A stretch of DNA of 64,000 nucleotides, taken from positions 70,333 through 134,332 of the IMG/VR virus record IMGVR_UViG_3300027807_000003, one strand, 5' to 3'. Of the stretch, positions 7,840 through 42,233 are shown piece by piece; position 1 is the first letter of the stretch; every line of letters begins with the position of its first letter. This DNA is from a virus (lineage: Duplodnaviria; Caudoviricetes). Under the pieces are notes generated by a model. It was given only the letters and a program-made list of their open reading frames with translations. It ran no database searches and was not told the origin of the DNA. Both the position numbers and the translations under genes were made by a program.

Positions 7840-7854
7840 ATCCGTCTTCTAAGA

Positions 7855-7885
7855 ATAGGGGGTCAAACCCCCTATCTATTTTTCT
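7855..7885 (+). terminator. Intrinsic terminator
   Basis: ATAGGGGG-TCAAA-CCCCCTAT followed by a T-rich tail, just after the stop codon. Confidence 0.6.
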
Positions 7886-7935
7886 TCCTGCTAAAGATAG
7901 ATTTTAAGAAACAAGGCTATAATTTTTTTTAATTA

Positions 7936-8454
7936 TTGTATTTTGCAAGCAATTTATTTGGTTTAAAAATGTTAACAATTCAGTTAAGTACAGGAAGCCT
8001 ACGTACATCGCTAAGTAGGTTTTTGGATACACCCATATTGGTCGAAAAAGTTGGCGACAAATACCAAGGGCTTGTTTTTTTAGATGGGGAGAATTTATTT
8101 AAAACCCCACTTTACAATTCCCCCAAATATACTTTACAAAAACTTCAAAGGAAAGCAGTTGAAAATTATTGCTACTCATCAAGATACCCTACCGTTATGA
8201 TGAGTATTCGTGGCCAAAAGCAAAAAGTGGTTGCATTGAACGAATTGGCAGAGAATTTTTTAGGGGACAAATTAAATGGGGAACCTTCGATTTTTAGTAA
8301 ATGGGGACGGGAATATATGCGGAAACACTTACTTTCTTTAAAAATTGCAGACATTGATCATTTAAATACAAAAAATGCCTTGATAGAAATTAAAAGGGTA
8401 TCAAAGGCACTTTTTGTTTATTCATTTGTAAATTGGGAGGATTCTATTTACTAA
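7936..8454 (+). CDS. Hypothetical protein
   Basis: 172-aa ORF; start probably at 7969. Confidence 0.55.
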   Translation: MYFASNLFGLKMLTIQLSTGSLRTSLSRFLDTPILVEKVGDKYQGLVFLDGENLFKTPLYNSPKYTLQKLQRKAVENYCYSSRYPTVMMSIRGQKQKVVALNELAENFLGDKLNGEPSIFSKWGREYMRKHLLSLKIADIDHLNTKNALIEIKRVSKALFVYSFVNWEDSIY

Positions 8455-9250: not shown

Positions 9251-9330
9251 ATACTACCGCTTTGCAACTACACATATCTTATAATATTATCAAATAAATA
9301 TTTTTGCAAAACAAGTATATTTTTGCAAAT

Positions 9331-9364
9331 CGCATGAAATACTTGTGGTGGCAGTATTTCAGCG
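9331..9364 (-). terminator. Hairpin just downstream of the Cas12/TnpB-like gene
   Basis: TGAAATACT-N9-AGTATTTCA inverted repeat; either a terminator or a relic IS605 right-end hairpin. Confidence 0.45.
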
Positions 9365-9378
9365 ATTTCGTTTTTAGC

Positions 9379-11259
9379 TTAAGTTTTCACCACTATTGGT
9401 TTTATTCTCTTTGTTTTAGCCGTTTTTGGTTTAACAGCCTTTCTGGTTTTTTTGATAGTGCGTTTTTTGCTGTCTACACCCTCTAGCGATTCAGGTGGCA
9501 CAGGCTTGTCAGTGCGGGTAATATGAGAAAACCATTCATAGTGCTTAATATCTTTTTCATCACAAAAAGCACCGTAATAATCATTTTGTGCAGCATTTGT
9601 ATCAGCGTTTTGTTGAATTTGATAAAGCTTACAACGTTCGTTTAAGCAGTAAAACTCAAGAGCTTTTGGGTGTCTACCTAGTTCCCCACAACAGTGACAT
9701 ATCTGGCTGGAATAAGGAGATGGGGACAAAGTGAAGCTATCTGGTCCCCTAAATCGCCGACATTTCTCCTCCACCAGCGATCGGTATCGTCCCCATCTAG
9801 CATCTAAAATTTCGCGATTTAAATCAGATTGGTGTTCCGCACCATTTGGTTCATATCCTTTACCATCTGCACTTGGTATCGGATCCGGACGCTTCACCAT
9901 CTCGTCTGTCGGCATTTCCTCAATAGTTATTTTCCCAAAGCGGCGTACCAGAATAGTTGAGGATTTATGCAAAAATGCATTGGCGGGTCGCCGGATCTTG
10001 GTTTCATTGATTTTACCTTTTCGGTGGAGCGTTTTTTTGTAATTATTACTATCTCCCCGCAAATGATCCACGGACAACCCTTGCTCTTGGCGCTCCTTGA
10101 TTAATTTTTTCCTATCGCTGCGTTGTCTGGCTAGTTTACGCTCGATTCTTGCTAATTTTCGAGCTTGTTTGGCAGCAAACCGAGGATTTTTGACATGGCT
10201 ACCAGGTTCGTCACTGGACATGAGGTTGATTAGCCCCGTATGGACAGCTATTCCCCGCTTCCGAGGTTTAATTTTGGCTTTTTTACGTACCTGTATTGAT
10301 AATTCTGCCTTTAAATCACTGATTTGCTGCTTAAGCAACTCTTTTTCCACAAACTCCGGAGTCTTTTTCAACTGAGCTTCCAGTTTACGAATTTTAACTT
10401 CCAAAGGATGGGCACTGACAATACACACATACCACCCGGTGGGTTCTTCCTTAATAGTTACCGCCCTAATGGCTCCGGGGGTAGATCGCACCTCTTCGGG
10501 AATTCGCTCATGATTCTTATTTACAAATCTTAGTGATAAAGGATGCTGCTTACCTTCACCATCTACCCATTTACCAGGGAGCCTAAGTCTATCGCCATCA
10601 AACCAGATCTGCTCTGGACTAATGCAATGGAATGATGGCAACATCTCATTCTTTTTAAAATTAGGCATACAAGCTTTTTCTATCTTGGGGTTCAAATAAG
10701 CTTCCCAAGCAGCAACTAAGCGATTAAACACAGTCCCCTTCATCCAAGACGACGGTACAGTGAGTTCCCCCAGTAGTTTTAGTTTCGGCTGACCCTTTTC
10801 TACACGATCCTTATTTATTAGCCGCCGGCGGGAGTCTTCTTCTTCACGCATCAAATCACATCTTGTCTTAGTCAGGTACCCTGTAAGGGTCATAAAAAGG
10901 TCTGGATTTTTGGGTCTAGCCTTATTTTCAGGGTAATGGGACAACAGAGTTGGTTCCTCTGGTAGCATTTTTGGGGGTATGGGGGTGTAGACTCCATTTT
11001 TAATAATTGCAATTTCACAAGTTGGCGATGCCCATGCCCTCTTTTTATTTAAGCGGAGCCTACAGCGGAGAATCCCGTTCATGTTGATTTTTTCTTTTGC
11101 TGCGTTTTTTAACATGAACTCGTAATACCTAAACTGCTGATACTCAATCAGCAACTCTAGCGCCTTGTTCCAAATCCACCTTAAATTAGCTGCATTTCTG
11201 CCAGTAAAGAAATTTTTCTCCCAATCATTCATGTAGATTTTGCACTCAGTCGTTATCAT
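9379..11259 (-). CDS. TnpB/Cas12-family (compact type V-U-like) RNA-guided effector, probably nuclease-dead
   Basis: N-terminal LRWIWNKAL helix, PNFKK and GWYVCI segments; RuvC-I GIAVHTG (Asp replaced by His), RuvC-II ITIEEM, YEPNG..QSDLNREILDARWG, Zn finger SQICHCCG...FYCLNERC, RuvC-III NADTNAAQN; adjacent CRISPR array; no tnpA. Confidence 0.88.
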   Translation of the reverse strand: MITTECKIYMNDWEKNFFTGRNAANLRWIWNKALELLIEYQQFRYYEFMLKNAAKEKINMNGILRCRLRLNKKRAWASPTCEIAIIKNGVYTPIPPKMLPEEPTLLSHYPENKARPKNPDLFMTLTGYLTKTRCDLMREEEDSRRRLINKDRVEKGQPKLKLLGELTVPSSWMKGTVFNRLVAAWEAYLNPKIEKACMPNFKKNEMLPSFHCISPEQIWFDGDRLRLPGKWVDGEGKQHPLSLRFVNKNHERIPEEVRSTPGAIRAVTIKEEPTGWYVCIVSAHPLEVKIRKLEAQLKKTPEFVEKELLKQQISDLKAELSIQVRKKAKIKPRKRGIAVHTGLINLMSSDEPGSHVKNPRFAAKQARKLARIERKLARQRSDRKKLIKERQEQGLSVDHLRGDSNNYKKTLHRKGKINETKIRRPANAFLHKSSTILVRRFGKITIEEMPTDEMVKRPDPIPSADGKGYEPNGAEHQSDLNREILDARWGRYRSLVEEKCRRFRGPDSFTLSPSPYSSQICHCCGELGRHPKALEFYCLNERCKLYQIQQNADTNAAQNDYYGAFCDEKDIKHYEWFSHITRTDKPVPPESLEGVDSKKRTIKKTRKAVKPKTAKTKRIKPIVVKT

Positions 11260-11312
11260 CCCCGTTACCCCTAAACCGTGACATGAACTAATTTAATCCA
11301 AAAAAGAACATC

Positions 11313-11341
11313 TTGCCTTTTTTGAAATTATGGATCATAAT
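11313..11341 (+). promoter_or_regulatory. Sigma70-type promoter for putative tracrRNA/pre-crRNA
   Basis: TTGCCT-N17-CATAAT, divergent from the effector gene. Confidence 0.55.
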
Positions 11342-11347
11342 GTGTTT

Positions 11348-11727
11348 ACTTTGAATTTTTCAAAGTCTACGCGGCTTGGTCTGCGGAAGTTAAAGCTTGT
11401 TCTGAACTTAAGTTCAGTATTTGGGGGACAAAATACCAGTGGGAGTACCCCCAAGCGACCAGTAGGTGAAAGCCCTGGATTGAGACAAGTCCCTCAATGA
11501 GCGGGCCGGAATCCTGCTCCGATCCCGGGCAACCGGAATACCTACACTCTTAGAGCGATCTGCTACCTGAACCTTGACAATTGCGCGCGTGCCACCCTTG
11601 CGATCTTTGCTCTGCAACGATTTTGGGTATCTGCTGTATCTCACGCGGGAATAAACACAGCTTGTTTACCTGAACTTCGGAAACCCTTTCTGGAATTCTT
11701 TCTACGACTGGGTTCTGGAGGGGAGGG
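11348..11727 (+). ncRNA. Putative tracrRNA/scaffold RNA and array leader
   Basis: No credible ORF, GC-richer than its flanks; contains anti-repeat CTTGCGATC (11597-11605) and GCGA-tctg-CTACCTG (11555-11569), both complementary to the repeat 3' end. Boundaries are approximate. Confidence 0.55.
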
Positions 11728-12650
11728 GTGGCGATAGGCTTTAGATGTCTGGGTAGTCGCAAGCTTGTAATGCCCAAACTTTTTGGTGTGCATCCCTAGC
11801 GGTGGCGATAGGCTTTAGATGTCTGGGTAGTCGCAAGTTTACAATAGGCAGATTCTTGATCAGCTAACGCTTAACGTGGCGATAGGCTTTAGATGTCTGG
11901 GTAGTCGCAAGCTCAACCAGCTAATTCCTAGCTATACTGGACAATCAGTGGCGATAGAACTTAGATGTCTGGGTAGTCGCAAGTGCCTATGATCCTCTGT
12001 TCCTTAGAGTGTTGGTGTGCTCTGTGGCGATAAGCCCTAGATATCTGGGTAGTTGCAAGAATACGAGTTATTGCCGCATCTTTATCTAGGTCAACTGTAG
12101 CGATAGGCTCTAGATGTCTGGATAGTCGCAAGAATCACGGTTGGCACGAGAGCGTTTTTCGCTCAATTTCGTGGCGATAGGCCCTAGATGTCTGGGTAGT
12201 CGCAAGCTGATCCATTCTTTCGTCACTTTCCACCCCCAATCCAGGTGGCGATAGGCCCTAGATGTCTGGGTAGTCGCAAGGTTGACATAAGTTACTGAAT
12301 TTAAGTCTCGATTTAATTAGTGGCGATAGGCTCTAGATGTCTGGATAGTCGCAAGTGGAGTTATTGGATTTGGATAAACACCACGAAAAAGTGGTGATAG
12401 GCTTTAGATGTCTGGGTAGTCGCAAGTAAAATTTGAGTGTTTACTTAAATCAGGGGGTTAAAAGTGGCGATCGCACCTAGTAGATGTTAGACAGTCGCAA
12501 GACACAGAATACAGGTTTAAACTTGTTAATGACAGCATTAAAGTCGCGATCGCACTTAAATATTTAGGCAGTTGCAATTCTGACTAATTATTAAAAAAGG
12601 TTAAGATCCGGGAGTGGCGATCGCAAGTGATAGTTCTGAATGATCGCAAG
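11728..12650 (+). CRISPR. CRISPR array, 36-nt repeat GTGGCGATAGGCYYTAGATGTCTGGRTAGTCGCAAG, 13 repeats (last 3 degenerate), 12 spacers of 35-41 nt
   Basis: Repeats start at 11728, 11802, 11876, 11948, 12024, 12097, 12171, 12245, 12320 and 12391; degenerate ones at 12464, 12543 and 12614. Spacers are unique. GTGGC...AAG ends resemble cyanobacterial type V repeats. Confidence 0.96.
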
Positions 12651-13255
12651 TTATCTTCCTGGTTGCCACAATTTTGGGGATGCCTGGCGAAAATCGCAAG
12701 TATCCAGGTCAGGACAAGACAGGGAATAGGGATTGCAAGGGTAAGGAATTTTAGGTCTGAGCGATCGCAGGTCCGAGTATGTCGCAAGTTGAATCGTGAG
12801 CCATCGACTGTTAAAGGTCTAGCGCAGGTTTAGACAATTCCCCAAAAAGTTGTTTTCTCCTGAAAACCTTACCCCACAAAGGTTTTGGTTGCACAAGTAT
12901 TTGTACTTTGATTACGAAACACATAAATTGGGCGTAGGTCGCAAGTCAGCAGGAATTTTATCACTTAGGTTCTCACAGGCAGTTTTAGGATTGGTGGCGA
13001 TCGCTAAGTATTACAGTTTTCTAGTCAAGTAGGAAAGAAAGATCGCAAGCTGTGAACAATTACTTTAAATAGGTTTAGATCGCCAAGGATGAATAAAAAG
13101 ATGAGATCGCAAGTCATGGGATTGGCAAGTCGCAAGACAAATTTCTCTCCCTATTCAGATCGCAAGCTGATCCAAAATGTCAGATAGACTATTTGCTTAA
13201 TGTAGTGCGATCGCAAGAACGAAGGGAACATTCCGAGTTTTGATAGATCGCAAGC
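12651..13255 (+). repeat. Field of minimal repeat 3'-ends ((G)ATCGCAAG / GTCGCAAG) with irregular spacing
   Basis: Motifs end at about 12700, 12739, 12788, 12945, 13049, 13113, 13136, 13166, 13217 and 13255, all on the + strand. Confidence 0.75.
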
Positions 13256-13263
13256 TGAAAAAC

Positions 13264-13917
13264 TTATTTACTGCTTCGTAAAGAAGATAGCCCAAAAGCT
13301 TTGAGAATTTGATTTTCTACCTGAACCTCAACAAATGAGGGAATAGAGCCTTTGGGTGCGAGACTTGGTACGTGATTATTGATCACAGTTCCAGCTTTCC
13401 AACATTTATCAAGAACTGACCAAACTTCTACAGTATCGCCCAATGAGGGGTATTCTGCTAAAAATTTTTCTTGTTCAACTACTGCCGATTTTTTAACTTC
13501 TTGTGGTGCTATCAGAGTAACTTCACCTCCGTAGCATCCAGGTGAAAGCTTTTCCAAGAACTCTGCTACATCGTGACGGTGGCAGGGTTCATTTGGTTTT
13601 TCGTAGCATAAAAGCGTTACGGGTTTTCCTGCTGACAAGGTAGAATTGAGCCAATTAGTAATTTGCTCAGAATTCTTCCTCAGAATATTCAAAAAAGCTG
13701 GTTGGTAACTAACGGTATACAGATTTTTTAAATAAGTCGAATAGTTTTCAACCTCAGCAGTTTTTGCTTTTTTCTCTATGAGTTTCCACTTTTTTAGTAG
13801 CTCCTCAGACGGGGCAAGCATATTTAAGTGTGTCCCAGTGAAATTTTTTGGGGGACGACGGGAGATAGAAATACCTTCCCCGATAATTGGTCCGGAGTAG
13901 TAACTGGTGTGAATCAT
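13264..13917 (-). CDS. DUF488-like protein with extra C-terminal domain
   Basis: IHTSYY...ISISRRPP...LAPSEELL...TLLCYEKPNEPCHRH. Confidence 0.7.
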   Translation of the reverse strand: MIHTSYYSGPIIGEGISISRRPPKNFTGTHLNMLAPSEELLKKWKLIEKKAKTAEVENYSTYLKNLYTVSYQPAFLNILRKNSEQITNWLNSTLSAGKPVTLLCYEKPNEPCHRHDVAEFLEKLSPGCYGGEVTLIAPQEVKKSAVVEQEKFLAEYPSLGDTVEVWSVLDKCWKAGTVINNHVPSLAPKGSIPSFVEVQVENQILKAFGLSSLRSSK

Positions 13918-14732
13918 GCCAACAGCCCCAGTAGTGGATAGTTTTCTTTGCAGTTTGGACTAAGCCATAAACACTCAACACCAGTACGAGAGCCATTAGT
14001 TTTAGCGTCCCACTTAATACACCGCCAGTCAGACAGCGATCGCTCATAAACTTCAGACCCGTACCCAGAAAGAATAACCATTGCATCTACTGATTGAAGT
14101 GTGGAGAGTAATTCTTGATGCTGGTGAATACTCATCTCATGGTCATAAATATTTTTGCTGACCCGCGAATCTGCGATGTAGGGAGGGTCACAGTAAAGCA
14201 GAAGGTCTGGATTTTCCCCTACACGGCGAATTAGCTTTAGGGCATCCCCACATTCAATCTGAACCAGCTTTAGGCGATCGCGCACCTGCTCCAAATGGTT
14301 GGTTCTATTCCAAGTCTCAACGACGTTTCGGCTATTGGATTGATGAATGAGTGACCATCCCCCGTTTTTAGTAACCGATGTTCCGCCGCCGTGGGTCTGC
14401 CAGCTGCGAATATAGAAATTAACGGCACGTTGCAAGGGTTCGGTAGTTGGTTCAAAAGCTTTCTTCCAGACGGTTCGGGAGTAGGGAGTATTCTCTATCT
14501 GCCAGAGAAACTCCTGATAGCGATCGCGGAAAACCTGGAAGAAATTAACCACGTCGTCGCTGAGGTCGTTGATAATTTCAACTGGGACTGGAGGTTTCTG
14601 GAGGAGTACTGATGCTCCGCCACAGAAGGGTTCACAGTACGCAGAATGGGGAGGGAAGTGGGAGATAATCTTGGCAGCATCTCGGTACTTCCCCCCAAAG
14701 TATCTGAGCAATGGGGGTAAATCGGCGATCAT
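13914..14732 (-). CDS. D12-class N6-adenine DNA methyltransferase (Dam-like)
   Basis: LRYFGGK, YCEPFCGGASV, EIINDL and YCDPPY motifs. Confidence 0.93.
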   Translation of the reverse strand: MIADLPPLLRYFGGKYRDAAKIISHFPPHSAYCEPFCGGASVLLQKPPVPVEIINDLSDDVVNFFQVFRDRYQEFLWQIENTPYSRTVWKKAFEPTTEPLQRAVNFYIRSWQTHGGGTSVTKNGGWSLIHQSNSRNVVETWNRTNHLEQVRDRLKLVQIECGDALKLIRRVGENPDLLLYCDPPYIADSRVSKNIYDHEMSIHQHQELLSTLQSVDAMVILSGYGSEVYERSLSDWRCIKWDAKTNGSRTGVECLWLSPNCKENYPLLGLLA

Positions 14733-16057
14733 TGATGCCTTGGTAGAATATCTCTAAAGGTGGTAAATTGTCTGTCAAACAGCATTTTTACTGTTCCGGT
14801 AGGACCATTACGGTGTTTGGCCACGTTTATCTCAACTATTCCCTGTTCCTCTGACTGAGGGTTGTAGTAGTCGTCACGGTATAATATCATGACCATGTCT
14901 GCGTGTTGCTCGATAGCACCAGACCCCTTTAAGTCGGATAAAAGTGGGCGCTTATCATTTCTGGATTCACACCCCCGATTGATTTGACAAAGCAGGATAA
15001 CCGGTACTTTTAGCTCACCACTTAGCTGCCGGAAAGCCAAAGTAATCGCATCTAACTCTGATACTTCATTTGAAACTTGATTAGATTTACTCATTAACTG
15101 TAGATAGTCAACAACTACAGCCCCCAAAACACCATTGTTTCGTTTCTTGGCCCATCGGCATTGGGCAAGTATAGAGGACGGGGTAATATTCCGGCTATCG
15201 TTTACGTAAATCGATAATCCAGAAATTTTATTAGTAGCCTCAACTACCTTATCCCACTGAAAATCTTTTATATCCCTCATCTTGAATATGTTTGTGGGTA
15301 GTTGAGATTTTGAGCAAATCATTCTTTCTACTAATTGCTGACTGCTCATTTCTAGGCTGAATACAACTACTGGGGCAACTCTGGAAATATTCTCGGCTAT
15401 CTCTAGCCCCAGGGCAGTTTTACCCATTGATGGCCGTCCAGCAATAATTGTCAAAGTTGATTCACTAAGCCCCCCAGTTAGTCCATCTAGTGCAAGATAC
15501 CCAGTTTTGACACTGGGGGATATATCACCACTTTGGACTCCTTCTAATTTTGTAAATCCCGCGATCGCTATTTCACTAATTGGTTTTAACTCAGAGGTAA
15601 TGCTTTCTTGGAAACCATCAATTATCCTTGAACCGTAAGCCAGTATTTCTTCATTGGTGTTTGCAGGGGTTTCTGCAAAATCCAAGAGTTCCCTAAATTG
15701 GGTAATTATTTGACGACGTATCCATTTTTGGATCAACAAATCGGACAGCTGGTCGATGTTAACATCTGAAACTGTCCGATCTAGTAGGTCTGCTAATTTC
15801 GACCTACCCCCAACGTTGTGTAATTCTTGGATTTCCTCTAGCTTATTTGCTACAAACATGGCATCCGTCGGTTTCCCTTCTAGACGCAGAGTAAGTATAG
15901 CTCTATAGATTTTTTGGTGAGTTACCAAGTAAAAAGCTTCTTCCCTCAAGGTTTCAATCACCCTTTCTATGGCACCTGGGGATAACATCAAACCACCCAG
16001 AACCGCCTCTTCTGCCTCAATGCTGTTTGGTGGGACTTTCAAAAATTGAGATTCCAT
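14729..16057 (-). CDS. dnaB: Replicative DNA helicase DnaB
   Basis: PPNSIEAEEAVLG, AGRPSMGKT, FSLEMS, VDYLQLM, RPLLSDLKGSGAIEQHAD and KHRNGPTG motifs. Confidence 0.97.
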   Translation of the reverse strand: MESQFLKVPPNSIEAEEAVLGGLMLSPGAIERVIETLREEAFYLVTHQKIYRAILTLRLEGKPTDAMFVANKLEEIQELHNVGGRSKLADLLDRTVSDVNIDQLSDLLIQKWIRRQIITQFRELLDFAETPANTNEEILAYGSRIIDGFQESITSELKPISEIAIAGFTKLEGVQSGDISPSVKTGYLALDGLTGGLSESTLTIIAGRPSMGKTALGLEIAENISRVAPVVVFSLEMSSQQLVERMICSKSQLPTNIFKMRDIKDFQWDKVVEATNKISGLSIYVNDSRNITPSSILAQCRWAKKRNNGVLGAVVVDYLQLMSKSNQVSNEVSELDAITLAFRQLSGELKVPVILLCQINRGCESRNDKRPLLSDLKGSGAIEQHADMVMILYRDDYYNPQSEEQGIVEINVAKHRNGPTGTVKMLFDRQFTTFRDILPRHQ

Positions 16058-33673: not shown

Positions 33674-34351
33674 GTGATCTTACTCCCCCCAAAGGCAAAA
33701 AGAAAAAACTCCCCTCCCAGAGCCAGGCAGGACGCAAAACCTCTTAAATGCTCAATTAAGAGTAAACAGTGTGGTCAACGGTGTATCCCTAAAGCTTACA
33801 AGTGCCACATTAGCGAACAGGAGTTGCAACGAATCGTCCACGACGTTGAGGATAAAATCAAGGATTTACCTACCGAACGGGCAGTGGTAATTGATCAAAA
33901 AACTGGGAGAATTTTGGTTAGCAAGGGGGGCGATCGCACTTCGGTTTTTCTGACTGTGGAGGATTTACAAAAAATGCGAGGAAATGTTATTACCCATAAC
34001 CACCCTAATCTAGGATGGAGTCCCAGCGATCCTCGTAGTAAAGGGTTAAGCTTTTCCCCCGCTGATATCCAAGCTGCTTGCATAGCACAATCCAGTGAAA
34101 TGAGAGCCGTAAGCAGTGGCTACAGGCACTCAATTAAACCCCCGCCATCGGGGTGGAATGAGCAATACTGGAACCAAAAGGTTGCACCATCCTACCGGAG
34201 GAATGAGAGCCAAGTTATGAATGAATTTACAGGTAAAATCTTAACCTTCAAAATGAGTCCTCGCCAAGCAGATGCCGATTTTCATCATGAAGTTATCAAG
34301 CGAACTGCTGCGGAACTGGGAATGATATATAAGCGGGAGGAAATTAGGTAA
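33674..34351 (+). CDS. Cys-knot + HNHP (JAB/MPN-like) domain protein
   Basis: RQDA-K..CSIKSKQCGQRCIPKAYKC, then E...THNHP...SFSPAD. Start uncertain. Confidence 0.65.
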   Translation: MILLPPKAKRKNSPPRARQDAKPLKCSIKSKQCGQRCIPKAYKCHISEQELQRIVHDVEDKIKDLPTERAVVIDQKTGRILVSKGGDRTSVFLTVEDLQKMRGNVITHNHPNLGWSPSDPRSKGLSFSPADIQAACIAQSSEMRAVSSGYRHSIKPPPSGWNEQYWNQKVAPSYRRNESQVMNEFTGKILTFKMSPRQADADFHHEVIKRTAAELGMIYKREEIR

Positions 34352-36279
34352 TGTCAATTGAAAATGCACCACCAGGATATCATTACGTCCATAGTAAACG
34401 AGTTAAGGGTGGCAGATACCTTGCTAAAAACCCCCGTGGTTCTGGGGCTAAAAAGACTTCTTTGAAAAGTCCTGGTAAGGCTTTGGCTATTACTGCCGGT
34501 GCTGCTGGTATTACTGCTGCTACTCTGGCAGCAGGGACTGGATTAACTATTGGGGCTTTAAAACTTAAGCATCGCCAAGCTATTGAAAAATCAGCCAGAG
34601 AAATTGAAAAAAGTTCCCCTGATACTGTTAAGCAAATTAATAATGAAAAACCCATTGTATATACGGCTTCTGGACTAAGAGGGACCGATAGTCCAGGAGA
34701 TTACTATGGTGAAAGTGTTAAAGATGCTGTTGGTGGAAGATACAATCATGTCTCTTTACCTCTAAAACATAATGTTGTAAAAGATACTTCTGTTACTGGC
34801 GCTATCAAGCATCATATAAAAGATATTTTGGGTAAAGGGCATGATCCCGACGCTACTATTTTAGCTAAACACGTTTACCATCAACACAATGCCAATCCCG
34901 ATAACCCTATATTTTTGAGTGGGCATAGTGCTGGTAGTATTACCGTAAATCATGCCCAAGAAATCTTAAATAAACTAAAAGTCCCTACACAAGTTGTTAA
35001 TACTAGTGGATACAAAACAGGGTTAGAGGATTTAAGTCATAAAAATAACACTACAATTTTAGGGAAGAAAGATGATGTAGTAAAACCAATTTATTCCCAT
35101 AATCCAATTATGGTGAATGGTGATCATTATATTCATCATCCAGATAACCCAAATCATGCAGAATGGAAGCGTACATTAAGGAGAGAAATGTACAAACATG
35201 AAATTCTTGGTTCTAGTAATCAAACTAAAAGAGACTCCGTTATTTCTGATATAGAAAACCAAAGGGGGAAAACTCGTATGTCAAAACAAATTAATGACCA
35301 AGAAGTTAGTGATCTAATCGCTCTAACCTATGCCCAAGAATTTGATGCCCCAGTAGATAAAATTCTCACTATCTATCATGGTGATACTGATGGTGTACTT
35401 TACGGAAGCCTGATCTCTGGTGGTGATTTTTATCATTATGCGATTAACGGGGACAGTATTGGATTACAGGATGATCCATCTGTAACTGACTACTTAAATC
35501 AGTATGCTTCAGGCTATATGTCTACTCATGGGGTAAATGCCGATAGCTATGGATTTGCTTTGGGATATCTAAAATTCGACTCCCAAGTAAAATGCAAACC
35601 TGGTAATGCTCCTTGTGGTGGACGTTGTTTGCCGAAAGGGCACCATTGTCGTGGGCATCAATCGGGTGGACATCTAAAATCCCCTGGGCTAGGTAAAGCC
35701 CTTGGTATTGGTGCGGCTGCTGTGGGTGGTGCAGCTGTATTAGGAGCAGGTGCGGGTGTGGGAGCGATCGCTCACGAAGAAATCGGCAGAGGGGCTAAAG
35801 CTGTAGGAGAGCGATTAAAAAGGGCCCATGAGGGGGCAACCAATGAACTCAAAGTAGGTATAAATGCTTCAAAAGAAGCGATCAAAGCTACTGATGATTC
35901 AACAAAAAACGCTCTTAAGGGGTTTAAGGATCAGCTAAATGCTACTTCAGATCCTGGTGAAAAAAGAACCATTAATCGAGCTTACCGAACCGCTCAACAC
36001 TCATCAGAAGGAATAAAAGCCGGAATAGCTGCGGGGGGTATTCATAGCTCCCTTGAAAATGCTGCTGGCATTGTCAAGAAAAACTTGAAAGAAGCAGGTA
36101 AGGATGTAAAAAGAACTGCTGGTGCAGTGGGGCGAAAAATTAAATCAACTTGGGCGGGGATTGATGCCAATAGTCCTAGCTCCGTAGATGAAGAACCTCA
36201 AAATAATCCAGAGAATGGCGATCGCAGTAGAAAAGCATCTAGTACTGCTACAAAATCCCAAAAAAAAAGAACAACTTAG
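34351..36279 (+). CDS. Modular protein: hydrophobic helix, alpha/beta-hydrolase (GHSAG), Cys knot, second hydrophobic helix
   Basis: IFLSGHSAGS nucleophile elbow; KFDS-QVKCKPGNAPCGGRCLPKGHHC. Confidence 0.75.
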   Translation: MSIENAPPGYHYVHSKRVKGGRYLAKNPRGSGAKKTSLKSPGKALAITAGAAGITAATLAAGTGLTIGALKLKHRQAIEKSAREIEKSSPDTVKQINNEKPIVYTASGLRGTDSPGDYYGESVKDAVGGRYNHVSLPLKHNVVKDTSVTGAIKHHIKDILGKGHDPDATILAKHVYHQHNANPDNPIFLSGHSAGSITVNHAQEILNKLKVPTQVVNTSGYKTGLEDLSHKNNTTILGKKDDVVKPIYSHNPIMVNGDHYIHHPDNPNHAEWKRTLRREMYKHEILGSSNQTKRDSVISDIENQRGKTRMSKQINDQEVSDLIALTYAQEFDAPVDKILTIYHGDTDGVLYGSLISGGDFYHYAINGDSIGLQDDPSVTDYLNQYASGYMSTHGVNADSYGFALGYLKFDSQVKCKPGNAPCGGRCLPKGHHCRGHQSGGHLKSPGLGKALGIGAAAVGGAAVLGAGAGVGAIAHEEIGRGAKAVGERLKRAHEGATNELKVGINASKEAIKATDDSTKNALKGFKDQLNATSDPGEKRTINRAYRTAQHSSEGIKAGIAAGGIHSSLENAAGIVKKNLKEAGKDVKRTAGAVGRKIKSTWAGIDANSPSSVDEEPQNNPENGDRSRKASSTATKSQKKRTT

Positions 36280-36302
36280 AGAGTGAAAATAAAGAGAATA
36301 AA

Positions 36303-36458
36303 ATGGAAGACAAAACCGAAGATAATCCAGAGGATAAAGATATTGAAAATATAGCTCGTGCTGTATACGGAACTGTACAAGTTGCTAGGAGATCCAATAG
36401 AAATAAAACCAAAAATATGAAATGGGGATATCAATCAAAACCCAATAAAGGGGAATAG
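36303..36458 (+). CDS. 51-aa ORF, or -1-frame continuation of the upstream gene
   Basis: MEDKTEDNPEDKDIENIARAVYG...; the frame is open back to the A9 tract at 36260-36268 and its stop abuts the next ATG. Confidence 0.45.
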   Translation: MEDKTEDNPEDKDIENIARAVYGTVQVARRSNRNKTKNMKWGYQSKPNKGE

Positions 36459-36460
36459 TA

Positions 36461-39400
36461 ATGCCTAAAACAGAGAATGATCTTTTTAAGGTAATTAGGG
36501 CAGATAAGGGTAAACCCTGTGGTAAAGGATATATCCCTGCTGGTAGAAAATGTTTAAAAAGCTCATCCCAGCGATCTATTAATCAAGAGCCAAAGCGTAT
36601 TAACCCGATTGTCCCAACTGCGATCGCCGTTGGGGGTGTGGCTGGAATAGCTGGCATAGCTGGGGCCTCTGTTTTAGGTGGTAAAATTGCCGCAGATAAA
36701 GGTAAAGATTTCCTTGAGAAAGCTAAACGAGAGTACACTGAGAATTTTACGACAAGTGGTAAAGTTGCCCAACAACTAGCCACAAAGATGAAAGCACCTA
36801 AAGTAAAATCTAAGCAGATAGTATTTACCGTAGGTGGATTTGGAACTAAAGATGCTTTCTCCGAGTCTCAAAAACTCCAAGATCATATTAAATCTTTAGG
36901 AATTAAAGATACCCATGTAGAGCCAATTCCTTACCAAGATTTTAATGTAGTTAGTAATCCTCAAAGTGACGGAAAATTAAAAGCAGTAGCAGAGACAACC
37001 TCTAAATTTATCCAAACTATTTTCATCAAAAAACATAACCCAGTTGCCGTTAGGTTGGCAGCTAAGGTATTAGCCTATCAAAAAGCCAATCCCCATGCCC
37101 AGATTCAGTTAGTGGGGCACTCTGGTGGTGGGCTAACTGTACAAGAAACCCATGAAATCTTGCATACACTCGGAGTAAAAGTAAAAAGCACTGCCATTGG
37201 TAGTCCAGATGTCGGGGTAATTCCCGGCAATGGAGACGTGGTAACAGCTACTTCAAAACATGACAATATTCTAGAGCAAGTAAGTAAAGGCAAAGGTGTA
37301 AATGGTGTACCTTTTGATAACGTGACTGATCACGCACAAGATGAATATTTTAAAGATCCTCATTTCCGTAAATTTATTAAAAATCGCTTAGATACCAGAA
37401 AATATAAAAAAGATAGTGCTACTACACTAAGTAAACCCTGTGGTAAAGGGTATATCCCTAGATCCAAAAAATGCCGTATTGGTGTGAACCGTCTCACCCC
37501 CCGAAAAATTAGGGGTGTAGATCCGGTCCTCTCCCCACTTTTAGGTGTAGGTGCGATCGCGCTAGGGGGGATAGCTGCTACTTCTGTAGGGTCTGCTGCT
37601 ATTCAACATACCAAGCAAGAATATGTTGCGGGGTTTACAAAAAGTGGGATTCAAGCTCAAAAAGCAGCTGATATTGCTTACCAAAAGTTAGATAAGGAAG
37701 GGAAACTACCGATAGTTGGTCCCAGTGTGAAACAGGTGATTTTTACCGTGGGGGGTTTTGGGACTAAAGATGCTTTCTCGGAGTCGGTGAAACTGAAAAA
37801 AAACATCCATTCATTAGATGTAAAGGATACTCAGGTTATTCCCATCCCCTACCATGATTTTAATGTTGCTACCAATGTAGAAAAAGACCCACTTGGCTCA
37901 GCTGGAGAGGCTTTAGCTAAATTCGTTGACACCACAACAGTTAAGAAGCGAAACGTTACTGCTGTTAAGTTGGCTGCAACCGTCTTAATCTACAAAAAAG
38001 CCAATCCCCATGTCCAGATTCAACTAGTGGGGCACTCTGGTGGTGGGTTAACTGTGCAGGAAACCCATGAAATTTTGCATACTTTAAATGTGAAACCGAA
38101 AACAACTGCGATTGGCAGCCCAGATGTGGGAATACTCCCCGGTACTGGAAACGTGGTGACGGCAACCTCAAAACACGACAAAATTCTTAAACTAAGTGGT
38201 GGGAAGGGGATAAATAGTGTCCCCTTTGATAATGTAGATGCCCACGGGCAAGATGAATATTTTAAAGATCCACATTTCCGAGAATTTGCTAAAAAACGCC
38301 TTACCCCCGGATCTAGGCTAGATAGTATTACCTCTGGGAAAAGCAAACCTTGTGGTAAGGGGTATATCCCCAGATTTAAAAAATGCCGAATTGGGATTAA
38401 TTCGCCTGCTGCTGGTGTAATTGGTGGTGGGTCAGTGGTAGTTGCCGCAACAGCAGCAGGTGCAGGATTATTGGGTGTTCCGTTGTCGGTATACACTGCT
38501 CAAAAACTCCGGTTTCAAGCTAATTTCCCTAAATCTGCTGAATTAGCTAAACAGCAATCTAAAACTTATTCTGTCCCTGACCAGTTAAAATCCGGATTTA
38601 GAGCGGTGAGCGATCAAAATCCAGACGCTAAATCACAGGTAACTAATAAGTACAGTTCCAATAAACCAGAGCAAATTACCTTTTTTGTGGGTGGGGTAGG
38701 TGGGAAAGACGGGCTGGAAGCTGATTACATGGGGCAGCAAGTTTCAAAACTACTACCCAATCACCATGTTGTTGGGATTGAGGCACCAGAGCAAGATGTG
38801 GTCCCCGAAGAAGGAGATAGTGTTGCTAACCCTCGGTTCTTGAAAAAAGTATTTAAATCACTGCTAGGGCAAAACCTCGAGAAAGGACGCAGTGACGTTG
38901 CTGTAAGAATAGCTGCTAGAGCTTACTCCTACCACCAAAAACACCCCGATTTACCCATTAATTTAGTTGGGCAATCAGGTGGTGGGATGCCAGTTAGGGA
39001 AGCTTATGAAATCTTAGATCGCATGGGTGTCAAGGGTGTTAAGGTCGCCACCACTGGCTCACCTTACTTTGGGCTAACTCGCCCTGTGGGGATTAGTCTG
39101 GTAAGCCCTGAAACTGACCCAGTGGACAAAATCTATGGGTTCACGATGCCCAACAAAGTAAAAGTCGATGCCCAAGGACACTCTCGCTATTACTCCAAAA
39201 CCCTCTACAACTCCAGCAACCAATTAGAAGCGGGGAAACACGCTGTAGTTAACCAGTCGGTGAAAAAGGTTTTAGATGAATACTTTGATCGCTCTCATAA
39301 ATTAGATAGTGCAGGAGTCGATGTTACTAAATCCATCTCCCCCACCTCCCTTCGACTCCAACAACAAATTAAAACTCTACTTTCGCGATCGCTCCGTAAA

Positions 39401-41584
39401 TCGGTCTTACAGCTTTCCAATGTCAAGATTACCAATGGGGTAGTTACTGGCACCTTTAATCAATCAGGTGTGATTTATACCTTTACCCTGAAAAACGACA
39501 ATATTACCTACCAAAGAGCTAGGGGAATCAGGAAAGATGCCGCACCTAGGAAAATTAAGCGTTGTCAAAAAGGGATTGGGTGTGGCGATACCTGTATCAG
39601 CCCTACTGATGTATGCAAAATTAAGGCTGGACAAATTGCCTCACCTAGTGAAATTGTCAACTTAAACCAGACTATGGCCAGGTTTGAGGTTGAGCAGCAT
39701 ATCAAGAATCCGACACCCCCGACACCCCCGTCACCCCCGACAACACCCCCCGCCAACGATTACGTCACCAATCCAGAAACAGGTGATAAGTACACCATTC
39801 GGGATTTAAAGAAAATCGCCCGTGAGAAAAGTATTGTCAACTATGGGGTAATGCCCATAGACGAACTGCGTGAATCTCTGAAATTAGCTGATAAAAATCC
39901 TGAATCACGCGATCGCATTACCAAGGGTGTTGCCAAACGCCAAAGTTTTACTGCTGGAGTGAAAAAAGCAGCAGGATTAAGTGGTCGCAATCCCAACGAG
40001 CGAGGTACAAAAAAATCTCTAGGGGATACCGTAGATACTTGGAAGAAAATTGAAGCCCTATCTAAGTTTGCGGGAAATTCCCCTCTGGGATGGGGAGCGG
40101 CTGCTGTGGGAGCTTTCCTATTAGGAACTACAATCCGCACCTATGAACGCGCTAAGAATAAATACCAAGAAGGATATAACGCATCAGCTAGATTTGCTGA
40201 GGAACGGGCCGTCAAAATCAACCTTCAACACCCAGTAGAAAGGGATGGGGAGGTAGTAATGCGAAAAGGTGAGCCATTGATGACCTCTAGCTTCTCTCAA
40301 AACAACATTACCTTTGCTGTTGGCTCAGGCAGGGGATACGGGGCAGAGGAAATCAAGAAAGCTTTGCAGTCTGAGAAAGATCCCAGTAATCGCCCCGACT
40401 ACTGGTTCACTCATAGCAACTACGTTATCCCGTTTAACCTCCAAGAAACCGGAGCACCATATATTGAGGGTGCAACCAAAAATCCCCAAGCCCAAGTTGC
40501 CAATGAAGTTGTCAATGGTTTTGGTAACTATCTAGAAAACTTTAAGCGTGGACGTAGCCAAGATGCTGTGGATTTGGCAGCTAATATCTACGCTCATGCG
40601 ATCGCGGTTGACCAAGTAGAAGGTAAGCCAGTTAATAAGTATAAAAATATTAATATCTTGGCCCACGGGACTGGGGGGCAAGTAACTAAAGAAGCATTGG
40701 AAATCTTAGCCAGAATGGATTTGAAAGGCTATCCCTCTGGGAAACAGGTACTTAAACAGGTAAATGCCGTGTATCTGGGTACTCCCCACTTTGGCTTTGC
40801 TGAAAATGTTTCCCGTAGGCAGAGAACCATTATCAGTGCCAATGACCCTATATCTAATATTCCGGCATTTGGCGATCAAGCTAGACAGCAATGGATTAGT
40901 TCAGTTCGAGGGCACTCCGCCGAAGATTACATCAAAGACCCCAGAGTCCGTGACTCTATTCGTGAAGCCTTCGGCTATCATCAAAGTTCCCCAGAGGAAA
41001 TTCGGCGCAATATTGGGCTGAGAAATCACCGAATCTCAACCCGTGCTGCTGCTGTAGAGGAAAGAGGTGATAGTAAATGCCATCCCGGTAGTGTCCCCTG
41101 TGGCGATCGCTGTCTCCCCCCAGGGTTTAAATGCCATAAAACTGACCCCAAGTTTAAAAGAAAACGGTTCATGGCCAGTATTGGGCGAGGTGTAGTCGGC
41201 TCCACCGTGGGGGGAATTGGGCAGGATTTAGAAAGAGCATACCTGAGAACTCGTAAATTATCCGAGGATGTGAACAACGCCAGAACCAAAAAGAAAATTA
41301 CTCGTAAACAGAAATTTAAGAAAGATATTTTGCATGAAGCTAAATTAGTTGGTGTTCAACTGGGGCAAGGTACTATTTCCAAAAAAATCAAGGAAATAGA
41401 TACTCACCTAATTAATGCTCATGAAAAATTAGAAGCAGCCCCTACTGAAATCCATAATTTAATCCATTCAGCTAAAGGAAACATTCAGCAGGCTAATGTC
41501 CCAGATAAGGCTAAGGCAATCACGCAAAAAATGAAAGACCGAATCAAATCTATTACCCACCGCCCTAAACAAGATGCCTACTAA
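36461..41584 (+). CDS. 1707-aa polyprotein-like protein with four alpha/beta-hydrolase modules and five Cys motifs
   Basis: GHSGGG twice, GQSGGG and AHGTGG; KPCGKGYIP...KC three times plus two CxxG..CGxxC...C motifs, each after an [RK]xD motif. Confidence 0.85.
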   Translation: MPKTENDLFKVIRADKGKPCGKGYIPAGRKCLKSSSQRSINQEPKRINPIVPTAIAVGGVAGIAGIAGASVLGGKIAADKGKDFLEKAKREYTENFTTSGKVAQQLATKMKAPKVKSKQIVFTVGGFGTKDAFSESQKLQDHIKSLGIKDTHVEPIPYQDFNVVSNPQSDGKLKAVAETTSKFIQTIFIKKHNPVAVRLAAKVLAYQKANPHAQIQLVGHSGGGLTVQETHEILHTLGVKVKSTAIGSPDVGVIPGNGDVVTATSKHDNILEQVSKGKGVNGVPFDNVTDHAQDEYFKDPHFRKFIKNRLDTRKYKKDSATTLSKPCGKGYIPRSKKCRIGVNRLTPRKIRGVDPVLSPLLGVGAIALGGIAATSVGSAAIQHTKQEYVAGFTKSGIQAQKAADIAYQKLDKEGKLPIVGPSVKQVIFTVGGFGTKDAFSESVKLKKNIHSLDVKDTQVIPIPYHDFNVATNVEKDPLGSAGEALAKFVDTTTVKKRNVTAVKLAATVLIYKKANPHVQIQLVGHSGGGLTVQETHEILHTLNVKPKTTAIGSPDVGILPGTGNVVTATSKHDKILKLSGGKGINSVPFDNVDAHGQDEYFKDPHFREFAKKRLTPGSRLDSITSGKSKPCGKGYIPRFKKCRIGINSPAAGVIGGGSVVVAATAAGAGLLGVPLSVYTAQKLRFQANFPKSAELAKQQSKTYSVPDQLKSGFRAVSDQNPDAKSQVTNKYSSNKPEQITFFVGGVGGKDGLEADYMGQQVSKLLPNHHVVGIEAPEQDVVPEEGDSVANPRFLKKVFKSLLGQNLEKGRSDVAVRIAARAYSYHQKHPDLPINLVGQSGGGMPVREAYEILDRMGVKGVKVATTGSPYFGLTRPVGISLVSPETDPVDKIYGFTMPNKVKVDAQGHSRYYSKTLYNSSNQLEAGKHAVVNQSVKKVLDEYFDRSHKLDSAGVDVTKSISPTSLRLQQQIKTLLSRSLRKSVLQLSNVKITNGVVTGTFNQSGVIYTFTLKNDNITYQRARGIRKDAAPRKIKRCQKGIGCGDTCISPTDVCKIKAGQIASPSEIVNLNQTMARFEVEQHIKNPTPPTPPSPPTTPPANDYVTNPETGDKYTIRDLKKIAREKSIVNYGVMPIDELRESLKLADKNPESRDRITKGVAKRQSFTAGVKKAAGLSGRNPNERGTKKSLGDTVDTWKKIEALSKFAGNSPLGWGAAAVGAFLLGTTIRTYERAKNKYQEGYNASARFAEERAVKINLQHPVERDGEVVMRKGEPLMTSSFSQNNITFAVGSGRGYGAEEIKKALQSEKDPSNRPDYWFTHSNYVIPFNLQETGAPYIEGATKNPQAQVANEVVNGFGNYLENFKRGRSQDAVDLAANIYAHAIAVDQVEGKPVNKYKNINILAHGTGGQVTKEALEILARMDLKGYPSGKQVLKQVNAVYLGTPHFGFAENVSRRQRTIISANDPISNIPAFGDQARQQWISSVRGHSAEDYIKDPRVRDSIREAFGYHQSSPEEIRRNIGLRNHRISTRAAAVEERGDSKCHPGSVPCGDRCLPPGFKCHKTDPKFKRKRFMASIGRGVVGSTVGGIGQDLERAYLRTRKLSEDVNNARTKKKITRKQKFKKDILHEAKLVGVQLGQGTISKKIKEIDTHLINAHEKLEAAPTEIHNLIHSAKGNIQQANVPDKAKAITQKMKDRIKSITHRPKQDAY

Positions 41585-42233
41585 TCAACCCACGGATTTA
41601 GATGTACTAGGTTTAATCAGTACCACTGGATTTAGAGATGAATTCTCTGGGACTTCCCTATCAAATAGCTGGTCTGCTACCTATGGTTCAGGGCAAAGTG
41701 GAACTGTAGGCAATGGTCAATTTGTCTTGGCTCTAGGGACTAATCCTGGTGTGCAGTCAACTATTCTCAGGACTTCCACCCCCTACACACCCCCGTTTGT
41801 CGCTGGTTTTTGTATTTCAACTGATAGTTATCTATCTAATCAACAAATTCAGCTAGGAGTAATAAGTACTACCAGTACTGATGGTGCGGCAATTATTATT
41901 AATACTGCTTCTAATAACGATTCAACTGCCCAATTCCAGTCTACTAGAGATGGTATTGGGTCGTCCTTTGCACCCATTAATATCCCTCAATTTCTTTACC
42001 CATCTAGTTACCTACTATTCAAAATAGATGTTCTCAATGCTGAAACTAAGCTACGGGTATTCAGTATTGGCACAACTAACAGTGGTACGTTATCTGTCCC
42101 TAACTCCCTATATACCTGTGTCCCCAATATCTCCCAAAGCTACCAAGTCTACATTAAAGCCATTAACTTAGCTAACGCTCCGGCATTTGCTAATAATCTC
42201 AGGGTTAAAGCCGCCTACTTGTTCCAGTACTAA
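41574..42233 (+). CDS. Beta-sandwich (lectin-like) putative virion protein
   Basis: FRDEFSGTSLSNSW start typical of ConA/LamG-like domains; S/T/N-rich. Confidence 0.5.
   Translation: MPTNQPTDLDVLGLISTTGFRDEFSGTSLSNSWSATYGSGQSGTVGNGQFVLALGTNPGVQSTILRTSTPYTPPFVAGFCISTDSYLSNQQIQLGVISTTSTDGAAIIINTASNNDSTAQFQSTRDGIGSSFAPINIPQFLYPSSYLLFKIDVLNAETKLRVFSIGTTNSGTLSVPNSLYTCVPNISQSYQVYIKAINLANAPAFANNLRVKAAYLFQY

Follow-up and report, generated by a model that had tools for sequence, protein, structure and literature searches.

The window analysed here, a stretch of 64,000 nucleotides (nt) from the viral record IMGVR_UViG_3300027807_000003 (Duplodnaviria; Caudoviricetes; positions 70,333 to 134,332), encodes two adjacent large proteins, P0001 and P0002, which we read, with a probability of roughly 0.6, as virion-carried multi-cassette effector proteins that anchor lipases in host membranes and that are functionally akin to the polyvalent and MuF-linked effectors of phages. 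The source record (134,332 bp, of which the window is the final 64 kb) is rated complete by CheckV, and the phage resembles CL131 and PaV-LD: its major capsid protein shares 54.6% identity with that of Aphanizomenon phage vB_AphaS-CL131 (CL131) and 33.2% with that of Planktothrix phage PaV-LD. Since close relatives of P0002 are also present in Nostoc assemblies, the host is most likely a filamentous cyanobacterium. Both proteins follow a cassette grammar, in which an R-x-D-(A/S/K/F) segment and a cysteine motif, together called the tag, are often followed by a Gly/Ala-rich uncharged stretch and then by a cargo domain. This grammar was mapped on P0001, P0002, the CL131 proteins and 20 relatives by locating Cys motifs, hydrophobic stretches and nucleophile elbows, and it resolves P0002 into five tagged cassettes.

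The first-pass annotation had proposed five alpha/beta-hydrolase domains in these two genes, and both structural models and alignment support the fold. The nucleophile elbows were recovered at their proposed sites, namely GHSAG at residue 191 of P0001 and, in P0002, GHSGGG at residues 219 and 524 (nt 37115 and 38030), GQSGGG at residue 837 (nt 38969) and AHGTGG at residue 1401 (nt 40661). As had likewise been claimed, each elbow of P0002 is followed by a GSP or GTP (247, 552, 866, 1440) and a late His (291, 595, 907, 1485), and each hydrolase is preceded by a Cys motif (19–31, 326–338, 630–642, 1035–1052) and an uncharged Gly/Ala-rich stretch (49–74, 355–381, 648–680, 1207–1225). An Asp (268, 573, 886, 1462) lies between the GSP or GTP and the His of each. 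A conserved, putative juxtamembrane helix follows each Gly/Ala-rich helix in the lipase cassettes. When the five domains were aligned with the single-cassette lipase of CL131, the Ser-Asp-His residues fell into register in four of them; these four also match the elbow pattern Sm-x-Ser-x-Sm, which the AHGTGG of the fifth does not. The fifth domain carries Gly1403 at the nucleophile position, with Asp1462 and His1485 still aligned, and Asp and His follow the nucleophile position in canonical order in all five. Invariant positions in an alignment of 22 sequences include Gly524, His525, Ser526, Asp573, His595, Ser839 and Asp886.

AlphaFold2 (AF2) models of P0002 were built for residues 1–945 (22 sequences) and 945–1707 (44 sequences), each with an alignment of relatives. 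The first model (mean predicted local distance difference test score, pLDDT, 74.1) contains three alpha/beta cores with pLDDT 81–97, specifically 83–96, 84–96 and 81–97 for modules 1, 2 and 3. The second (mean 76.0) shows a helix and four-stranded beta domain at 93–97, a tag hairpin at 83–95, a fourth alpha/beta core at 84–97, two short helices at the Rho_N-like site and a poorly defined helical C-terminus. Foldseek searches of both models against the PDB placed minimal lipases on top (1i6w_B, E 3.1e-4, probability 1.00, TMt 0.52; 6nkc_A, E 3.9e-4, TMt 0.64). Structural alignment with VIA-align matched module 1 (model residues 115–312) to 2qjw_A with Z 14.2 and a root-mean-square deviation (rmsd) of 3.2 over 163 aligned residues, and the fifth domain (model residues 335–563, corresponding to P0002 1279–1507) to 6nkc_B with Z 14.0 and rmsd 3.2 over 166 of 172 residues. 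The domains are predicted from these models to be lid-less minimal hydrolases of the lipase/esterase type that would hydrolyse esters or lipids.

The tag exists in a four-cysteine form, C-x5-7-C-G-x2-C-[IL]-x6-C, and a two-cysteine form, P-C-G-K-G-[YFWH]-[IL]-[PS]-x5-C. The strict motif pattern, applied to all six frames of the whole 134-kb genome, gave seven matches, all in frame in P0001, P0002 and P0023, the product of the gene immediately upstream of P0001, while each of 20 shuffled genomes gave 0–1; the motif thus occurs more often than by chance. The earlier designation of these elements as Cys-knots was not borne out; they contain four or two cysteines and form a beta-hairpin in the model. 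At least one tag is present in 103 of 141 family proteins, and 205 of 225 tags have an Asp in the 14 residues that precede them. Among 256 distinct instances that keep the second and fourth cysteines (C2 and C4), C1 and C3 occur together in 208 and are jointly missing in 47; the remaining instance has C3 alone, and none has C1 alone. Where C3 is missing, an aromatic residue mostly takes its place (Y 24, F 8, W 6, H 6). A C1–C3/C2–C4 arrangement, such as two disulfides, would fit this coupling of C1 and C3 better than a single metal site with four ligands. As a further defining element, the sequence L-K-(S/T)-P ahead of the hydrophobic stretch was considered and dropped, being found in only 18 of 85 cases.

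Every independently encoded cassette begins with a tag, and the tag invariably stands at the N-terminal edge of a cargo unit, be it a separate gene or a section of a long chain. At the DNA level, the tag pattern matched seven times in PaV-LD and six times in CL131, all on the coding strand, with no match on the reverse strand and none in a reversed-pattern control; Nodularia phage 2AV2 gave no match to the DNA pattern, yet the P0002 core has two 2AV2 proteins among its structural neighbours. In PaV-LD, ORF078, ORF079, ORF080, ORF081 and ORF085 each start with a tag, which in ORF078 and ORF079 is accompanied by the beta domain. ORF079 matches the Pfam family ART (24.2 bits, cut-off 22.3), ORF080 and ORF081 contain an HExxH motif that was recognized by eye and has no Pfam match, and none of the five has an obvious hydrophobic stretch. 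Because these tagged genes carry other cargo and no such helix, we regard the tag as separable from both the helix and the lipases. PaV-LD carries seven tagged genes in all, located at 6842–14906 of segment L010 and at record positions 38857 and 43079, and RefSeq labels ORF085 a 'minor head protein' and ORF081 a 'virion structural protein'. Searching phage records by tblastn with the PaV-LD tag region returned PaV-LD itself only, and an ESM Atlas search with the segment spanning beta domain and tag gave no usable match.

P0001 runs from a hydrophobic stretch through an active-looking hydrolase, a small beta domain, a four-cysteine tag and a second hydrophobic stretch to a basic helical tail that extends from there to residue 642. 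Unlike the modules of P0002, its hydrolase has a hydrophobic stretch without a Cys motif upstream, the Cys motif lying downstream of the hydrolase instead. The hydrolase matches modules of P0002 in BLASTP (E 2e-13, 5e-11 and 1e-7), and its assignment to the fold is based on these matches and the alignment. The first half of P0001 is 49% identical over 245 residues to CL131 gp047, a single tag-helix-lipase cassette, and the second half shares 33% identity with CL131 gp045 over 324 residues. Judged by these alignments, P0001 is a fusion of the separately encoded gp045 and gp047 in the opposite order. The counterparts lie within positions 9950–12709 of the CL131 segment L001, where gp046 has no counterpart in the window.

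The first-pass annotation had also described modules 1 and 2 of P0002 as recent duplicates. They are indeed a tandem duplication (56% amino acid identity, E 9e-108), yet not a very recent one, with DNA repeats that are 71–79% identical at a spacing of about 915 nt. Aligned relatives have one such module only, and the duplication is lineage-specific. For the proposed Rho-N-like helix pair the results are mixed: P0002 itself has no Pfam match there at E ≤ 0.01, but the model contains two helices, and Rho_N (PF07498) reaches its cut-off of 24.9 bits on the aligned stretch in the relatives P0054 (25.5 bits) and P0063 (26.9 bits) and narrowly misses it in P0020 (24.8 bits).

That such proteins are part of the particle is indicated by published data for CL131. 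Supplementary Table 5 of the CL131 study lists 23 virion proteins detected with liquid chromatography–tandem mass spectrometry in CsCl-purified CL131 (PMC6293099). ORF048, the orthologue of P0002, is listed with a score of 453.8, 54.6% coverage, 105 peptides and 175 peptide-spectrum matches (PSMs), the highest score among 15 of the 23 table rows. ORF045 is an abundant virion protein (score 335.4, 123 PSMs), and the table further contains ORF046 (11 PSMs), ORF047 (24 PSMs), ORF044 as the orthologue of P0023 (9 PSMs) and the tape measure ORF049 (110 PSMs); the main text refers to structural proteins of unknown function (PMC6293099). Of the earlier description of P0001 and P0002 as capsid-packaged, the virion part is therefore supported through the orthologues of both, ORF045 and ORF047 corresponding to parts of P0001 and ORF048 to P0002 (PMC6293099). 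The capsid rather than the tail as their site, proteolytic release of the modules, membrane insertion and a lipid or thylakoid substrate, which belong to the same earlier description, are putative.

A location in the head is suggested by P0023, which has a tag at its N-terminus, conserved at the same position in six related loci. An ESM Atlas model of the exact P0023 sequence found a neighbour cluster in which 70% of members carry Phage_Mu_F (TM 0.74 by query), and a second structural neighbour, a Phage_min_cap2 cluster with TM 0.67, meets the bar of the tool. In the metagenomic protein P0185, a Portal_Mu domain (E 2.3e-48, residues 45–390) is followed at residues 550–763 by a domain that is 31% identical to P0023 over 224 residues (E 2e-21 pairwise, 8.7e-12 database-wide), and a P0023-like domain forms the first cassette of the P0002 relative P0020. 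The models therefore offer a lead, namely that P0023 resembles minor head proteins of the MuF or SPP1 gp7 type. MuF-type proteins are portal-linked head components and frequent carriers of injected effectors (PMC5512222), and the likeness of the tagged P0023 to them, together with the fusion of its domain to a Mu-type portal, is the main reason why we favour the head. P0023 also contains an invariant stretch, T-H-N-H-P-N-L-G...S-F-S..D; an assignment as a JAB/MPN-type peptidase from T-H-N-H-P...S..D was considered and, for want of Pfam or PDB sequence support, given up in favour of the MuF-like lead.

The placement of both genes in a virion operon, as stated by the first-pass annotation, was borne out, with genes for a head protease, cement protein, capsid protein and DUF4054 protein on one side, the protease gene lying 4 kb upstream, and a tape-measure-like gene on the other. 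In CL131 and in the IMG/VR loci L004, L006 and L008, those that extend far enough upstream to show the full order, genes for protease, cement, capsid and further head proteins are followed by a P0023-like gene, a gp045-like gene, optional lipase genes, a P0002-like gene and the tape-measure gene. L005 and L007 begin at a contig end within the cluster and show the same order downstream, so that gene order is common to CL131 and five of the six IMG/VR loci, the P0002-like gene there lying directly 5' of the tape-measure gene. These six loci were retrieved with an alignment as query; a single protein as query found no relatives in IMG/VR. In a tblastn search of 50,697 phage records with P0002, or with its part comprising beta domain, tag and Rho_N-like motif, CL131 was the sole match.

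Further relatives came from protein databases. A word-indexed search yielded 21 relatives of P0002 with 1005–2677 residues, and phmmer with residues 1030–1707 against 1.84 billion representatives yielded 129 sequences at E ≤ 0.001 and 64 at E ≤ 1e-30, ranging from 93 to 3641 residues. Common to the family is a core of beta domain, four-cysteine tag, Rho_N-like motif, hydrophobic stretch and the fifth hydrolase-like domain. As the elbow of this domain has the consensus LAHGxGG across the family, absence of the nucleophile is the family rule. The position is occupied by Cys (AHCNGG, AHCTGG) in the Nostoc-type proteins P0003, P0004, P0005, P0006, P0008, P0010 and P0019 and by Ser (AHSRSG) in P0022, and by this substitution the fifth domain may be active in some lineages. 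A cluster look-up of ten family representatives gave no informative name for nine; the cluster of the tenth consists of short Listeria acetyltransferase fragments and was judged unrelated. A distant 2159-residue relative in locus L009 (8948–15427, 27% identity) has hydrolase modules and lacks the strict Cys tag and the shared synteny; it may represent an untagged branch of the family.

The cargo of these relatives varies widely. Among 59 relatives scanned, Pfam hydrolase matches comprise Lipase_3, DUF676, Palm_thioest, PGAP1 and Tle3-like domains, next to LRAT, HipA_2, PI3_PI4-kinase-like, DnaJ, His_Phos_1, NUDIX, PARP and SNF2 helicase matches, with up to four different enzyme families combined in one relative. 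Clear scores were obtained for His_Phos_1 (89.7 bits), Helicase_C (65.5), DnaJ (up to 58.1), PI3_PI4_kinase (38.0) and NUDIX (37.9), and many of the other matches lie close to their cut-offs. Exchange of whole cassettes is visible between near-identical proteins. In 40-residue windows, P0009 and P0014 are 95–100% identical over residues 1–320 (one window at 77%) and 662–1421 (the last, partial window at 72%), but only 12–50% identical over residues 360–661, and the left breakpoint lies directly behind a tag. P0006 differs from P0004 by an extra block of about 470 residues inserted just ahead of a tag, with windows of 80–100% identity beside the insertion and through the C-terminal half. Such swapping of whole cassettes agrees with the earlier suggestion of polymorphic cargo.

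On this basis we propose the following course of events for P0001 and P0002. The tag, a short helix ending in R-x-D and a beta-hairpin with cysteines coupled as C1–C3 and C2–C4, or with C2 and C4 only, would address the proteins to the particle, preferably to the head near the portal, the presumed site of the tagged MuF-like neighbour. The proteins would leave the particle together with the DNA at infection, the Gly/Ala-rich helices would insert into a membrane of the host and tether the hydrolases to its surface, and the hydrolases would deacylate membrane lipids, which could ease entry locally or alter the host envelope. The nucleophile-less core, the small beta domain and the Rho_N-like motif may serve as the family scaffold, possibly with contact to DNA. 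In this proposal, the packaging function of the tag, the ejection, the insertion into the membrane, the nature of the lipid substrate and any proteolytic cleavage are all putative. A bolder extension, which we consider rather unlikely, would make the R-x-D and Cys-hairpin element a portable address tag of the CL131/PaV-LD lineage that loads whatever cargo lies behind it (lipases, kinases, ARTs, DnaJ, NUDIX or MuF-like domains). Its Cys pairs would then serve as a redox-sensitive lock that is oxidised while the virion is free and reduced in the cell, cassettes would be cut apart at the tags, and tag and hydrophobic helix would take the enzyme to or across the membrane. The whole would amount to plug-and-play injection of proteins, a kind of system as yet undescribed in phages.

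Several observations weigh against membrane-anchored effector lipases. The virion detection concerns a CL131 orthologue that is 38% identical to P0002 overall and 54% in the core. Pfam matches of P0002 are marginal and barely exceed the cut-off (DUF676 23.6 bits, Lipase_3 22.6 bits), for which reason the protein was modelled in two pieces; P0001 has no Pfam match; and with a profile of the five modules and CL131 gp047, lipases and esterases were matched only weakly among PDB sequences (E ≥ 0.08), so that a fold search was needed to settle the fold. The VIA-align rows of the first model cover module 1 only, modules 2 and 3 being assigned by secondary structure in the model and by alignment. Thioesterases, cutinases and dienelactone hydrolases reach scores similar to those of lipases, so that the substrate cannot be read from the fold. 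The hydrophobic stretches are moderate (Kyte-Doolittle 1.5–1.9), have pLDDT below 40 and could be flexible linkers, and a hydrophobic 19-mer occurs within 90 residues downstream of only 83 of 225 tags, which again indicates that tag and helix are separable. P0023, finally, has no Pfam, PHROG or PDB sequence match, and PF04233 and PF06152 were not matched even at E ≤ 10 with six aligned sequences (P0023 and five from related loci).

The position of the genes also counts against a head location. They adjoin the tape measure, where tail genes usually lie, and one BFVD structural neighbour is named 'Tape measure domain protein', and for these reasons a tail location was kept as the main rival: the proteins would travel with the tape measure as part of a tail-borne penetration complex, their helices forming or lining a trans-envelope channel and their hydrolases breaching the envelope, by analogy with enzymatic motifs embedded in some tape-measure proteins. 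The conserved position directly upstream of the tape-measure gene, the Gly/Ala-rich hydrophobic segments and the likeness of gp047 to a 'tape measure domain protein' remarked on in the CL131 record fit this explanation. Yet neither P0001 and P0002 nor the 59 relatives scanned match a tape-measure PHROG or Pfam family, folded enzyme domains of about 200 kDa would be hard to fit into a tail tube, the cargo of relatives (DnaJ, NUDIX, kinase, SNF2, ART) has the cytoplasm, not the envelope, as its site of action, and the tagged neighbour looks portal- or MuF-associated, all of which makes a tail complex unlikely. A further candidate, proposed by the first-pass annotation and compatible with virion-carried effectors, is a true polyprotein from which a prohead or other protease would cut at R-x-D/tag junctions to free tag-helix-enzyme units. 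Internal proteins of phage T4 are trimmed at their targeting sequence, and here the nearby head maturation protease gene, the Asp conserved ahead of the tags and the existence of the same cassettes as separate genes in CL131 (gp047) and PaV-LD would agree with processing. Against it, R-x-D is kept at the extreme N-terminus of stand-alone cassettes, where it is equally expected as part of a folded tag, and the residue after the Asp varies (A, S, K, F). We hold such cleavage to be possible, if doubtful.

Should the hydrolase folds be scaffolds only, the proteins would contribute to the internal architecture of head or neck and have no enzymatic action on the host. The most conserved domain of the family lacks its nucleophile (LAHGxGG, here Gly1403), and the gp045-like partner is very abundant in CL131 virions (123 PSMs; PMC6293099). 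This purely structural role appears very unlikely, since four domains retain Ser, Asp and His, which are invariant across 22 sequences, and since the exchange of cargo for other enzymes is more in keeping with effectors than with architecture. Polymorphic toxins of the MuF type have been described for temperate phages (PMC5576092), and the polymorphic cassettes, the MuF-like neighbour and the relatives in Nostoc assemblies would be in line with an inter-bacterial toxin of this type that a prophage-bearing cell uses against competitors. The cassettes are, however, followed by a beta-rich protein of 219 residues and then the tape measure, not by an immunity-like small gene, the record is a complete phage genome, and the CL131 orthologue is found in infectious virions, leaving this explanation barely plausible.

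The first-pass annotation knew of no described system with this architecture, which is correct only in part. Virion-packaged multi-effector proteins of the polyvalent or MuF type are known as a general kind, the closest one described, while open-access text searches turned up neither the tag nor virion-packaged lipase cassettes, a result that is no proof of absence. Polyvalent proteins carry 2–15 effector domains per polypeptide, are encoded by late virion genes and are thought to be packaged and delivered at invasion (PMC5512222). P0002 is similarly very large, multi-domain and late-encoded, its domain make-up differs between close relatives, and it would count three active-looking hydrolases (from their residues), one inactive copy and the Rho_N-like motif. 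Relatives with SNF2, ART, NUDIX and kinase domains and the MuF-like protein next door add to the likeness. What sets P0001 and P0002 apart are the repeated Cys tag, a hydrophobic helix per cassette, lipase-type cargo and a cyanophage host range. Of the hub domains of polyvalent proteins (MPTase, ArdC-N, ART, SNF2, ParB, MuF), Pfam found none in P0001 or P0002, and SNF2 and PARP/ART in relatives only; we therefore describe both proteins as working like polyvalent proteins and do not file them as members. The main text of the polyvalent-protein study by Iyer, Burroughs, Anand, de Souza and Aravind (2017) contains no occurrence of transmembrane, lipase, hydrolase, esterase, cysteine, NlpC, DnaJ or tape measure (PMC5512222).

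Known counterparts are CL131 ORF045, ORF047 and ORF048 and PaV-LD ORF078–081 and ORF085, which are true orthologues or paralogues, share the tag and occupy the same place in the gene order. They differ in how cassettes are split, CL131 having a single-cassette lipase gene (gp047) and PaV-LD single-cassette genes with ART or HExxH. They were published as hypothetical or structural proteins, and the passages and tables consulted do not describe the tag or the lipase domains (PMC6293099). In fold, the hydrolases resemble Bacillus subtilis LipA (1i6w) and Lip_vut1 (6nkc), which share the lid-less core (Z 13–14, rmsd about 3 Å, 155–166 residues aligned), but identity is only 14–20%, and the phage proteins add an N-terminal tag, hydrophobic and juxtamembrane helices, several copies per chain and, in one copy, a Gly in place of the nucleophile. 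Tle lipases of the type VI secretion system (T6SS) are delivered GxSxG lipases directed at the membranes of a target cell, and some T6SS effectors have N-terminal transmembrane helices proposed to aid insertion. They offer no more than an analogy: weak Tle3 matches occur in the relatives P0026 (23.7 bits, cut-off 27) and P0036 (30.2 bits), although the delivery machine is different, a PAAR/VgrG/Rhs context is missing and P0001 and P0002 have no Tle3 match. Internal proteins of T4 use a short N-terminal capsid-targeting sequence to place diverse cargo in the head for injection; the tag has no sequence likeness to it, is a Cys hairpin repeated within one chain, and has a putative role in packaging.

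Understanding of the phages that infect bloom-forming filamentous cyanobacteria is still poor, and the annotation of their largest virion proteins reads 'hypothetical'. The tag-helix-cargo grammar makes such proteins readable and predicts that these phages carry membrane-anchored lipases and other enzymes into the cell, and the cargo, reshuffled between near-identical phages, bears the mark of an arms race. In addition, the grammar points to virion effectors of the polyvalent type in cyanophages, set against the paucity of polyvalent proteins reported for cyanobacteria (PMC5512222). If the tag is a packaging address, proteins of choice could be loaded into cyanophage particles by means of this simple handle, and viral metagenomes could be searched with it for effectors.

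The coordinates of all features are compiled in Table 1; the open reading frames (ORFs) of P0001 and P0002 occupy exactly the span assigned to them in the first-pass annotation.

Table 1. Features of the P0001/P0002 region and its neighbours, numbered from the first nucleotide of the window.
Feature	Position (nt)	Strand	Remarks
Head maturation protease (DUF2213)	28649		Pfam/PHROG
Cement protein	30163		Pfam/PHROG
Major capsid protein	31143		Pfam/PHROG
DUF4054 protein	32716		Pfam/PHROG; then two small genes before P0023
P0023, 225 aa	33674..34351	+	
P0023 N-terminal R-x-D and 4-Cys tag	33749-33805		globular domain after tag
P0001, 642 aa	34351..36279	+	
P0001 Gly/Ala-rich uncharged stretch	34480..34560	+	residues 44-70; G+A 0.56, Kyte-Doolittle 1.55
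P0001 hydrolase domain (predicted)	34633..35250	+	GHSAG, Ser193, Asp241, His269; alignment
P0001 4-Cys tag	35593..35649	+	residues 415-433; F-D-S in front
P0001 second Gly/Ala-rich uncharged stretch	35698..35772	+	residues 450-474; G+A 0.72
P0002, 1707 aa	36461..41584	+	
P0002 cassette 1	36461..37384	+	2-Cys tag 36515-36553; hydrophobic stretch 36605-36682; Ser221, Asp268, His291
P0002 cassette 2	37385..38296	+	tag 37436-37474; hydrophobic stretch 37523-37603; Ser526, Asp573, His595
P0002 cassette 3	38297..39295	+	tag 38348-38386; hydrophobic stretch 38402-38500; GQSGGG, Ser839, Asp886, His907
P0002-family conserved core	39296..41077	+	parts in the following five rows
Core: helix and 4-strand beta domain	39341-39517		
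Core: 4-Cys tag	39563-39616		
Core: Rho_N-like helix pair	39782-39895		
Core: hydrophobic stretch	40079-40135		residues 1207-1225
Core: hydrolase-like domain without nucleophile	40304-40972		Gly1403, Asp1462, His1485
P0002 cassette 5	41078..41581	+	4-Cys tag 41078-41134; conserved helical C-terminal piece (GGxGQDLERAYLRT...), low AF2 confidence
P0024, 219 aa, beta-rich	41574..42233		between P0002 and tape-measure gene
Tape-measure-like protein, 2833 aa	42236..50737	+	six PHROG tape-measure families, best E 1.2e-13

P0001 and P0002 are separated by a gap of 181 nt (36280–36460), which is unusual, as relatives have nearly none. It contains an ORF of 51 codons (36303–36458) whose product is first acidic and then basic, and a 30-nt repeat of the P0001 end is found in this region (36187–36216 and 36306–36335, 73% identical). 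P0024 is Ser/Thr/Gly-rich and probably all-beta, without a Pfam or PHROG match. CL131 and the five IMG/VR loci with shared synteny lack it at this place, their tape-measure gene following the P0002-like gene directly. The tape-measure-like protein itself, with 2833 residues here, has 2130 to 2991 residues in relatives. At about 1.5 Å of tail per tape-measure residue, this would mean a very long tail of around 0.4 micrometre.

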